Below the pieces are notes generated by a model, which was given only the letters and a program-made list of their open reading frames with translations, was not told the DNA's origin and searched no databases. A stretch of DNA of 64,000 nt from Curvularia clavata (lineage: Eukaryota), in contig CP089277.1 of NCBI GenBank assembly GCA_023920165.1, positions 186,001 to 250,000 on the forward strand, given 5' to 3'. This document shows, piece after piece, positions 36,855 through 38,628 of this stretch (positions within the stretch are counted from its first letter, which is position 1; every line of letters begins with the position of its first letter). The translations under genes and the position numbers were made by a program.

Positions 36855-38628
36855 ATGCCCAACATTGCACCTACCATCGCGAGGCAGGCCTTGCGCATTG
36901 CTTCTCGTCGCTACCCATCGTCGGCCTTCGTACGCGCCCCGGGAGCGGCCGCTCGTCGCCACTATGTCAGCGAGAGCAAAGCTTCGCAGGCGACGGTCAA
37001 TGTCGACACTGCGATCAAGCAGGAGCAGAGGGCCTTTCTAGAGAAGACGGGTGAACGGCCAAGTGATGCGACAATGCCAACAACAGGCATGGGCGCGGAT
37101 GCCATGATGAGCCCTAGTGCTGGTAAGCTTGCAATATTCGCCTCTCGACCCCGCCCCACCTCATGAGACTGACTGGAGCAGGTATACTCAAGCAAGCTAC
37201 GGTCATGGACCAAGGCTCGCGGCCCATCTACTTGGACATGCAAGCTACTACGCCCATGGACCCGAGAGTTGTAGACAAGATGATGCCCTTCATGACCGGC
37301 ATGTACGGCAACCCCCATTCGCGAACCCACGCCTATGGGTGGGAAACGGACAAAGCCGTAGAGGAAGCCCGCGCACACATTGCCAACTTGATTGGTGCCG
37401 ACCCCAAAGAAATCATCTTCACTAGCGGTGCGACTGAAAGTAACAATATGAGTATCAAAGGTGTAGCACGATTCTTTGGAAAGGGAGGCAAGAAGAAGCA
37501 CATCATCACAGCGCAGACCGAGCACAAGTGTGTGCTCGACAGCTGTAGACATTTGCAAGACGAGGGTTTCTCGGTGACTTACCTGCCAGTAGGAAGCAAT
37601 GGTCTCATCGACATGGCCCAGCTCGAAGCCGCCATGCGTCCAGACACTGCCATTGTCAGCATCATGACGGTCAACAACGAGATTGGCGTGGTACAACCAG
37701 TCGAAGAGATTGGACGGCTGTGCCGATCGAAGAAGGTGTTTTTCCACACCGACGCGGCTCAAGCCGTTGGTAAAATTCCCATCGATGTCAACAAGATGAA
37801 TGTCGACTTGATGTCAATATCTGGGCACAAGATCTACGGACCAAAGGGCATTGGAGCATGCTATGTTCGACGACGGCCCAGGGTCAGACTCGAACCCATC
37901 ATCAGTGGTGGTGGCCAGGAGCGCGGTCTGCGAAGTGGCACACTAGCACCTCCCCTTGCTATTGGCATGGGTGAAGCCGCGCGGATTTGCAAAGAGGAGA
38001 TGGAGGTATGTATTTCTTTTTCTTCTATTACACTTTTGAACCACGATGATTATTTGCTTTAATACATGCATGGCTTTCAGAGTGTTAGGCGGCTTCGGCC
38101 GTCGACGCGCCATGTTGACAAATGTGCAGGGGTTATGAGAATTTATTGTTAGCAATTTGGTTGTAACAGTTAATGGGCTCGAACAACGCGCTGACGATAA
38201 TCCAGTATGATACCAAGCGCATCACAGCGCTATCAAATCGTCTCCTCGATGGCTTGCTATCACTTGAGCACACCACACTGAACGGCGACCGCGAGCGACA
38301 TTATCCCGGCTGCGTAAACGTTTCGTTCGCGTATGTTGAAGGAGAATCACTGCTCATGGCGCTGAAGGACATTGCTCTTTCTTCTGGCAGCGCTTGCACT
38401 TCAGCGTCGCTCGAACCCAGCTACGTTCTACGAGCTCTCGGCAGCAGTGATGAGAGCGCGCACAGCAGTATCCGCTTTGGTATTGGCCGCTTCACAACAG
38501 ACTCTGAGATTGATTATGTCTTGAACGCGGTCAAGGAGAGAGTGACGTTCCTGCGAGAGCTTAGTCCATTGTGGGAGCTGGTGCAGGAGGGTGTCGATCT
38601 GAACACAATCGAATGGAGTCAGCACTAA
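36855..38628 (+). CDS. NFS1: Mitochondrial cysteine desulfurase
   Basis: Arg-rich presequence; [38 protein letters not shown] (PLP Lys), SSGSACTS (catalytic Cys), EWSQH end; two introns. Confidence 0.97.
38038..38143 (+). ncRNA. Intronic box C/D snoRNA, double guide (18S rRNA and U6 snRNA)
   Basis: C box ACGATGA 38043-49; guide ACATGCATGGCTT 38064-76; D' CAGA 38078-81; cUUCGg hairpin; C' ATGTTGA 38112-18; guide TGTGCAGGGGTT 38123-34; D ATGA 38135-38. Lies in the ~200-nt NFS1 intron 2. Confidence 0.82.

Follow-up and report, generated by a model that had tools for sequence, protein, structure and literature searches.

A box C/D snoRNA in intron 2 of the NFS1 gene of Curvularia clavata: an apparent orthologue of Neurospora Nc CD4 with a probable second guide for U6 snRNA

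The closest described relative of the element analysed here is Nc CD4 (EU780928) of Neurospora crassa, an 81 nt intronic box C/D small nucleolar RNA (snoRNA) from chromosome V that is known from complementary DNA (cDNA) cloning and northern blotting (Liu 2009, PMC2780460, Table 1). Its D' guide is assigned to Cm49 of 18S ribosomal RNA (rRNA) with a 13/0 match, and the same table lists no homologue in S. pombe, S. cerevisiae, Arabidopsis or human. The sequence given in Additional file 1 of that paper runs AUGAUGA, about 10 nt, ACAUGCAUGGCUUU, CUGA, a short hairpin, UGUUGA, 15 nt and CUGA, and Additional file 4 draws the Nc CD4/18S duplex with C49 at the fifth position. The snoStrip family CD_4 is not discussed in the main-text passages available from Canzler 2018 (PMC5824354). 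Here, we describe an element of this kind in a stretch of 64 000 nucleotides of Curvularia clavata DNA (assembly GCA_023920165.1, contig CP089277.1, positions 186 001-250 000 of the forward strand), which is referred to as the window and within which all positions are numbered. The element lies in intron 2 of an NFS1-type gene. We favour, with moderate confidence, the reading that it is the orthologue of Nc CD4, with a D' guide for 18S C49 and a D guide for the U6 small nuclear RNA (snRNA) nucleotide equivalent to C56 of fungi and C62 of human.

The host gene encodes a cysteine desulfurase of the IscS/NFS1 type (IscS subfamily). Both exons flanking the intron match Pfam Aminotran_5, and exon 2 matches the NCBIfam IscS model with E = 6e-134. 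A GT..AG joint that omits exactly the 200 bases 38006-38205 was found in four of four RNA runs, and two of them (X4 and X6) also yielded intron-bearing contigs; X16 and X18 gave none. A preliminary description of this stretch, made from its letters, had called intron 2 three to four times longer than is typical; this holds within the NFS1 gene, to which the comparison of intron lengths applies, where intron 1 (37123-37181) measures 59 nt against 200 nt for intron 2. One contig of run X6 spans 38006-38193; it starts with the intron and stops one base short of the branch A (38194), which is the pattern expected of reads from an excised lariat; its mean word depth is 22.5, compared with 664.8 for the contig of the spliced messenger RNA.

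The elements of the snoRNA lie on the plus strand in the order C box, guide 1, D' box, UUCG hairpin, C' box, guide 2 and D box (Table 1). This ordered layout and its coordinates had been proposed in the preliminary description and are borne out by the sequence of 38006-38205. The internal boxes that characterize the box C/D class are present as CAGA and ATGTTGA, are joined by a covarying hairpin and are spaced as in Nc CD4. The D' side carries an antisense element of the kind expected for the class, with at least 10 bp of complementarity that end 1-2 nt before the box and with the target nucleotide at the fifth position. The C box ACGATGA and the D box ATGA have one consensus mismatch each and retain both GA dinucleotides. 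Downstream of the D box, the branch A follows after 56 nt and the 3' splice site after 67 nt; a distance from the D box to the 3' splice site in this range is reported, from the work of Hirose and Steitz in 2001, to be optimal for the processing of intronic box C/D snoRNAs. A CTGA at 38191-38194 was considered as the true D box and was rejected, since these letters form the branch site, where relatives have CTAAC. Beyond the C and D boxes, no convincing terminal stem was found by eye. The layout, its conservation, the covariation of the hairpin and the likeness to Nc CD4 support the double-guide box C/D snoRNA that had been suggested, and we conclude that NFS1 intron 2 most probably holds a genuine box C/D snoRNA. 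Whether the family is already catalogued had been left open, and the answer is divided. The literature holds it as Nc CD4, whereas Rfam gave no match at gathering scores in the whole window and, with E values up to 10 in 37950-38260, returned only matches at chance level (the best relevant one on the plus strand having E = 1.2).

Table 1. Positions of the features of NFS1 intron 2 and its predicted snoRNA, and neighbours of the related metagenome loci outside NFS1.
Feature	Position	Strand	Remarks
NFS1 intron 2	38006-38205	+	200 nt; from sequence, RNA-run joints and exon domain matches
5' splice site GTATGT	38006-38011	+	From sequence
Branch site GCTGAC	38190-38195	+	Branch A at 38194
3' splice site CAG	38203-38205	+	From sequence
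Predicted mature box C/D snoRNA	38038-38143	+	About 100-106 nt; ends placed by inference a few nt beyond the C and D boxes
C box variant ACGATGA	38043-38049	+	Consensus RUGAUGA
Spacer, C box to guide 1			14 nt
Guide 1 (D' antisense element) ACATGCATGGCTT	38064-38076	+	Followed by one T at 38077; G38073 is the fifth base upstream of D'
D' box CAGA	38078-38081	+	From sequence and relatives
Internal D'-C' hairpin	38082-38108	+	GUGU-UA-GGCGGC-UUCG-GCCGUC-G-ACGC
Hairpin core GGCGGC-UUCG-GCCGUC	38088-38103	+	Extended by GUGU/ACGC, 38082-38085/38105-38108
C' box ATGTTGA	38112-38118	+	TGTTGA at the same place in Nc CD4 and nearly all relatives
CAAAT	Between C' box and guide 2	+	Window sequence
Guide 2 (D antisense element) GTGCAGGGGTT	38124-38134	+	G38130 is the fifth base upstream of D
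D box variant ATGA	38135-38138	+	Consensus CUGA
Micro-exon of the minor isoform	38130-38147	+	18 nt, in-frame TGA; contigs of run X4
Locus L030	336-445	-	Intron of a V-ATPase A/B-family gene; U6-type copy
Loci L007 and L031 (identical)			Intron of a ribosomal protein S4e (RPS4e) gene
Locus L022			CSN8/PSMD8/eIF3K-family gene
Locus L018			Downstream of a Bmt2-like open reading frame
Loci L015 and L023			No recognised neighbour
Loci L004, L009 and L016			Repeated or tandem copies, short contigs

Guide 1 had been described as an exact complement of 18S rRNA, and this is confirmed on the stretch of 18S from N. crassa (rather than from the organism itself) that is printed in Additional file 4 of Liu 2009, with which it forms 13 bp, and at the fifth position G38073 faces C49. 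Guide 1 and Nc CD4 agree in all 13 pairing letters and in the one-letter gap before the D' box. The two RNAs also share the order of their elements, the D' guide ACAUGCAUGGCUUU followed by a D' box, the predicted target 18S Cm49, the UGUUGA C' box, a hairpin between D' and C' and an intronic location. They differ in that Nc CD4 is 81 nt long with canonical boxes (AUGAUGA, CUGA and CUGA), whereas in the window the C box is shifted, the D' and D boxes are CAGA and AUGA, the UUCG hairpin is longer and the second guide is GUGCAGGGGUU; the D-side element of Nc CD4 (..ACAGCAACUUCU) is without complementarity to U6 and has no assigned target. The assignment of guide 1 to 18S C49 in the preliminary description is correct but is not new, as this is the D' guide of Nc CD4: the 18S half of the RNA and the existence of the family are already in print. 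Methylation of C49 through the D' guide is predicted here, as it was predicted by Liu 2009.

Relatives were sought in a metagenome collection with the pattern GATGA, 8-22 letters, guide 1, TC-N-GA, which gave 31 loci. The pattern pre-selected the C box and guide 1; everything 3' of the D' box, as well as the host gene, is independent of it. Hosts were assigned by searching the 31 loci with the two NFS1 exon peptides of the window. NFS1 exons were found on both sides in 21 of the 31 loci, with the intron at the same codon and residue as in the window, so that these loci share the orthologous host intron that is expected within the Nc CD4 family (snoStrip CD_4). The guide and its D' context are identical, and an alignment of 19 distinct sequences shows a common body in which the GC(T) motif described below, the TGTTGA C' box and the place of the hairpin recur; Nc CD4 itself was compared by eye. 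Neurospora-like copies in the collection occupy the same NFS1 intron as the window RNA, the host of Nc CD4 being given as 'Intron, chr V'. Judged by sequence, the window RNA is most simply read as the orthologue of N. crassa Nc CD4, and its relation to the NFS1 host appears to be old and stable. The link to a sulfur-donor gene drawn in the preliminary description stands as a conserved host relation but is not exclusive, the copy in L030 being located in a V-ATPase intron.

The ten loci outside NFS1 are listed with their neighbours at the foot of Table 1. L030 would be either a paralogue or the result of a change of host; an NFS1-hosted copy is present in L020, which comes from the same series of samples. 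The 18S C49 guide with its C and D' boxes was also seen beyond NFS1 in L007/L031, L022, L018, L004, L009 and L016. The guide family may extend more widely than the 'no homologues' entry in Table 1 of Liu 2009 implies.

Conservation was examined in a whole-intron alignment of the window with three NFS1-hosted relatives (L012, L013 and L020). Invariant columns number 85 of 98 in the RNA; for the two flanks of the intron the counts are 9 of 37 and 21 of 68. The introns of the X4 and X6 contigs differ from the window at six positions (38015, 38017, 38030, 38145, 38169 and 38170), all six of which are outside 38043-38138 (P ~0.02 if they were uniformly placed); the two runs share all six and count as one comparison. 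RNAalifold, applied to five sequences, gives the D'-C' hairpin, in which two pairs, 50-73 (UA to CG) and 58-68 (GC to AU), are changed on both sides in L030 and five further pairs are altered on one side. An alignment of orthologous NFS1 introns had been suggested as a check on the boxes and guides; in the three NFS1-hosted metagenome relatives aligned here, both are conserved. Additionally, the spacer that separates the C box from guide 1 contains a GC(T) motif (38056-38058) that does not vary among the six sequences with a guide 2 of the window type (U6-type sequences, defined below) and is found in all 19 distinct aligned sequences, even in those with otherwise different spacers. One idea is that it provides an extra pairing with 18S of the kind described by van Nues 2011 (PMC3116282).

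Guide 2 was compared with an 11-nt U6 motif quoted in the preliminary description, rather than with the U6 of the organism. On this motif it forms 11 pairs, two G-U followed by nine Watson-Crick, with G38130 opposite the third C of the C-run. By the rule that the nucleotide paired to the fifth base upstream of the D box is modified, the predicted site is C62 in human and C56 in S. pombe and N. crassa, the offset between the two numberings being six. Human U6 is methylated at A47, A53, G54, C60, C62, C63, A70 and C77, and many of its methylation sites are common to S. pombe and plants. In S. pombe, 2'-O-methylated nucleotides of U6 are placed at A41, C55-C57 and A64 in the passages available from Porat 2023 (PMC10484740), and Additional file 4 of Liu 2009 (PMC2780460) gives the N. 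crassa U6 stretch GAUUAGCAUGG, whose fifth letter is A47.

The block GCAGGGGTT stands directly before ATGA in 7 of the 31 loci, which represent five distinct sequences (L012, L013, L020=L027=L028, L026 and L030), and the combination of GCAGGGGTT and ATGA lies outside the search pattern. Together with the window there are six U6-type sequences, all of which contain GCAGGGGTT and five of which (the window and four of the five relatives) contain the full GTGCAGGGGTT. The three to five letters 5' of this block vary; between C' and the block the sequences read CAAAT, CACA, CAACA and CTAAAAA, and the letters after the D box vary too. In L026 the C box differs (GGATGA), the D' box is CTGA, and the spacer and the hairpin are not those of the window either, yet the block and ATGA are retained; L030 keeps both in another host gene (V-ATPase A/B-family). 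By a rough estimate of our own (not the output of a tool), a fixed 11-mer would fit in the right register with a chance of ~1e-6 per site, which corresponds to ~1e-2 over ~7 kb of rRNA and snRNA and to ~1e-4 over ~100 known methylated sites. The U6 guide put forward in the preliminary description is supported in that conservation ends at the edges of the complementarity and that the site is methylated in human and belongs to the C cluster of S. pombe, but the guide is absent from the Neurospora-type relatives. We regard guide 2 as a probable candidate for a new U6 guide.

A number of points weigh against an Nc CD4 orthologue that guides both 18S and U6. The C box and guide 1 of the 31 loci, having been pre-selected by the pattern, are not independent evidence. 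The C and D boxes are both off consensus, and a D box that begins with A forfeits the G-C pair of kink-turn stem II. The RNA runs are available as contigs, which reveal splicing and cannot reveal a discrete RNA of 100 nt. The numbering of the methylated nucleotides (A41, A47, C55-57 and A64) agrees with the quoted U6 motif and is no proof of it, and motif searches of the literature found no printed fungal U6 stem-loop, the sole relevant match being a template labelled 'Human U6', in which the motif is present. L026 fits the motif at 9 of the 11 guide positions (seven Watson-Crick and two G-U), which is short for a guide. Furthermore, 15 of the 21 NFS1-hosted loci carry another D-side element (..ACAGCA-N-C..), which is like that of Nc CD4; because most relatives thus bear a different D element, the U6 function, if real, would be lineage-specific and not ancestral. 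Finally, RNAalifold also allows a helix, made of invariant columns only, between part of guide 2 and the letters that follow the C box, and the RNA's own fold may be an alternative reason for the conservation of guide 2.

The doubts about the D side converge on an explanation that we consider unlikely, although it carries some weight, in which the RNA is a real snoRNA guiding 18S Cm49 and its D-side element is not a guide for U6 methylation. In that case the element would be orphan, would serve some other RNA (for example rRNA) as a guide or accessory pairing, or would be conserved for the fold of the snoRNA itself or for the kink-turn. The derivation of the U6 duplex from a quoted motif instead of a real fungal U6, and the reduced fit of L026, are both compatible with this explanation, as is the RNAalifold model, in which GCAG and GGUUAU of the guide 2 region pair with the stretch after the C box; that helix shows no covariation, however, and a guide within a small nucleolar ribonucleoprotein (snoRNP) is normally single-stranded. 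The Neurospora-type D element has no assigned target and varies at position 6 from the D box, and the D side therefore need not be a classical guide. Against this stand the end of conservation at the edges of the U6 complementarity, the register that sets a C of a known methylated cluster at position 5 and the low chance of a fit to a known site (~1e-4 in the rough estimate above).

Among the NFS1-hosted loci, the D side is found in two forms, GCAGGGGUU/AUGA and the Neurospora-type ACAGCA. The latter, ..ACAGCA-N-CTTCT followed by CTGA, is itself conserved (in L001, L002, L003, L005, L006, L011, L014, L015, L029 and others), but the sixth letter counted from its D box varies, which is unusual in a methylation guide. 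To the eye, AGACAGCA of this element looks like the guide of Nc CD21 for 18S Am28 (AGACAAGCA) minus one letter, and the element might provide an accessory pairing with 18S just upstream of the C49 duplex.

In the alignment, read by eye, canonical members have (G)ATGATGA at the C box. The shifted form NGATGATTA occurs in the window group (the window, L012, L013, L020/27/28 and L030), in L026 and in L010/24. Judged by eye, the C box of the window can be derived from an ancestral GATGATGA by a shift of register, the second TGA having turned into TTA, and the usable C box, CGATGA or GGATGA, is thereby located three letters upstream. Within this form, CGATGATTAT is invariant in the window, L012, L013, L020 and L030, and GGATGATTA is found in L026 and L010. 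The D box ATGA replaces CTGA in all nine of the 31 loci with a shifted C box and in no other aligned locus, a co-occurrence that would reflect either structural coupling or shared descent. The D' box reads CAGA throughout the window group and CTGA in the other relatives; CAGA D' boxes are also drawn for Nc CD21, CD27 and CD51 (Liu 2009, PMC2780460). The expressed orphan Nc CD55, which was cloned and is northern-positive, bears the same pair of outer boxes, AGAUGAUUA/AUGA (Liu 2009, PMC2780460). The concern that the boxes are non-canonical, raised in the preliminary description, is largely answered by the occurrence of NGATGATTA with ATGA in nine loci and of the same pair in the expressed Nc CD55. 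The off-consensus boxes appear to be a tolerated variant and not the result of decay, and the NGATGATTA/ATGA pair could represent a variant class of kink-turn.

It is very improbable that the intron is merely long and contains a decaying snoRNA pseudogene whose boxes ACGATGA, CAGA and ATGA no longer assemble a snoRNP. Three boxes off consensus and the lack of an Rfam match in the window are what such decay would leave, but the RNA is conserved over its flanks, with every letter of the variant boxes retained in relatives although the flanks of their introns have diverged, the hairpin has undergone compensatory changes and the differences in the X4/X6 intron avoid the RNA. Variant boxes are, moreover, found in other snoRNAs: AGAUGAUUA/AUGA in the expressed Nc CD55 and, according to passages of Porat 2023 (PMC10484740), an off-consensus C box in sno530, a proven U6 guide of S. 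pombe.

In a minor form of the transcript, which was seen in one of the four runs (X4), the intron is removed in two parts, 38006-38129 and 38148-38205, with the joints 38005/38130 and 38147/38206 in two contigs. The piece with the first joint has a depth of 13.3, compared with 1523 for the main joint. The cryptic 3' splice site is the CAG at 38127-38129 and the cryptic 5' splice site is the GT at 38148. Since this CAG is inside guide 2, splicing of the micro-exon destroys the snoRNA. Neither the downstream GT site nor the length of the micro-exon is conserved in the relatives, and we read this form as splicing noise or a minor unproductive isoform and not as the reason for the conservation. 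That the conserved sequence is an element controlling NFS1 splicing, a poison micro-exon or nested intron that uses the CAG of guide 2 and involves no trans-acting RNA, would explain the 18-nt exon with its in-frame TGA in the X4 contigs but can hardly be credited, given the single run, the low depth, the unconserved GT site and exon length, and the presence of the same RNA in a V-ATPase intron and, with the other D element, as a cloned snoRNA in Neurospora.

As an Nc CD4 orthologue with guides for 18S and U6, the RNA would mature and act as follows. The intron is spliced out, as the RNA joints show; by analogy with the known maturation of intronic snoRNAs, it would then be debranched and trimmed by exonucleases to an RNA of ~100 nt. 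Box C/D proteins would protect this RNA at two places, the variant C/D kink-turn (ACGAUGA/AUGA) and the C'/D' pair, whose boxes would be held together by the internal hairpin. The D' guide would pair over 13 bp with 18S rRNA 46-58, and fibrillarin would 2'-O-methylate C49, as predicted for Nc CD4. The D guide GUGCAGGGGUU, which would have replaced the Neurospora-type element in this lineage, would form 11 bp with U6, nine Watson-Crick and two G-U, on the 5' strand of the internal stem-loop, and the third C of the C-run (human C62/S. pombe C56) would come to lie at the methylation position. The accumulation of the RNA in C. clavata, both methylations and the sequence of its U6 are what we infer; a discrete small RNA has been seen for the Neurospora orthologue by cloning and northern blotting, and in the window the RNA is known from sequence and RNA contigs.

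The spliceosome has U6 as its catalytic RNA, and ribose methylations occur in a conserved cluster on the U6 stem-loop. The number of U6 guides known from fungi is small, and the window RNA is a conserved, off-consensus candidate for that very C cluster. A broader proposal, which we find plausible without quite favouring it, is that this RNA represents the type of guide that has been missing in fungi for the methylated C residues of the U6 stem-loop, that its NGAUGAUUA/AUGA kink-turn has hidden it from canonical searches and that the same box pair could define a larger subclass of box C/D RNAs that has gone unnoticed. A bolder extension starts from the usable 3' splice site (UGCAG/G) within guide 2, through which the splicing of the host intron can eliminate the guide; this would directly link the activity of the spliceosome to the supply of an RNA that modifies U6. 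The locus offers a concrete candidate for work on filamentous fungi, and the variant box pattern can be used for searches elsewhere. It also presents a snoRNA family that swaps one of its two guides between lineages and keeps the host intron and the first guide; the snoStrip survey has described target turnover of this sort.

Among the known U6 guides, SNORD94 (U94) guides Cm62 in vertebrates (passage of PMC6894857). The window RNA would target the same U6 nucleotide, human C62, which is a functional likeness and not membership of one family; the Rfam models give no match in the window, and a relation in sequence is not expected. To our knowledge, SNORD94 has not been reported to bear an 18S guide. 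In S. pombe, sno530 is a proven guide for U6 Am64 whose off-consensus C box caused it to be overlooked by canonical searches, as stated in passages of Porat 2023 (PMC10484740). It resembles the window RNA in being directed at the U6 stem-loop, as is predicted for the window RNA, and in its off-consensus C box. It is otherwise a different RNA with a different site and architecture, and sno530 is experimentally proven whereas the guide in the window is predicted. The same passages report that no snoRNA was found for C55, C56 and C57 of S. pombe U6, perhaps because the guides are off the canonical motifs. C56 of U6 is not named as a target in the main-text passages of Liu 2009 or Canzler 2018, although the supplemental tables S14/S16 of the latter may list a D target for CD_4. 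Our literature search found no methylation map of a filamentous fungus, nothing usable on modifications in cryo-EM structures of the Neurospora ribosome and nothing relevant on NFS1 together with a snoRNA, and the SnoBIRD paper does not deal with U6. Guides with both an rRNA and an snRNA target have been described in fungi as CD11 (18S and U6), CD29 (U2 and 5.8S) and CD24 (18S and U5), the Neurospora CD11/yeast snR53 family being predicted to target 18S Am793 and U6 Am47 (Liu 2009, PMC2780460). For the Pezizomycotina family CD_54 (Nc_CD_54), passages of Canzler 2018 (PMC5824354) give N. crassa U6-55, within the C-run of the stem-loop, as the predicted target. CD11/snR53 and CD_54 are, like the window RNA, fungal box C/D RNAs predicted for U6; unlike it, they belong to other families and are directed at other U6 positions. 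Dual rRNA/snRNA guides are thus already established in fungi, and what the window RNA adds to them is a probable U6 guide at a site without a known fungal guide.

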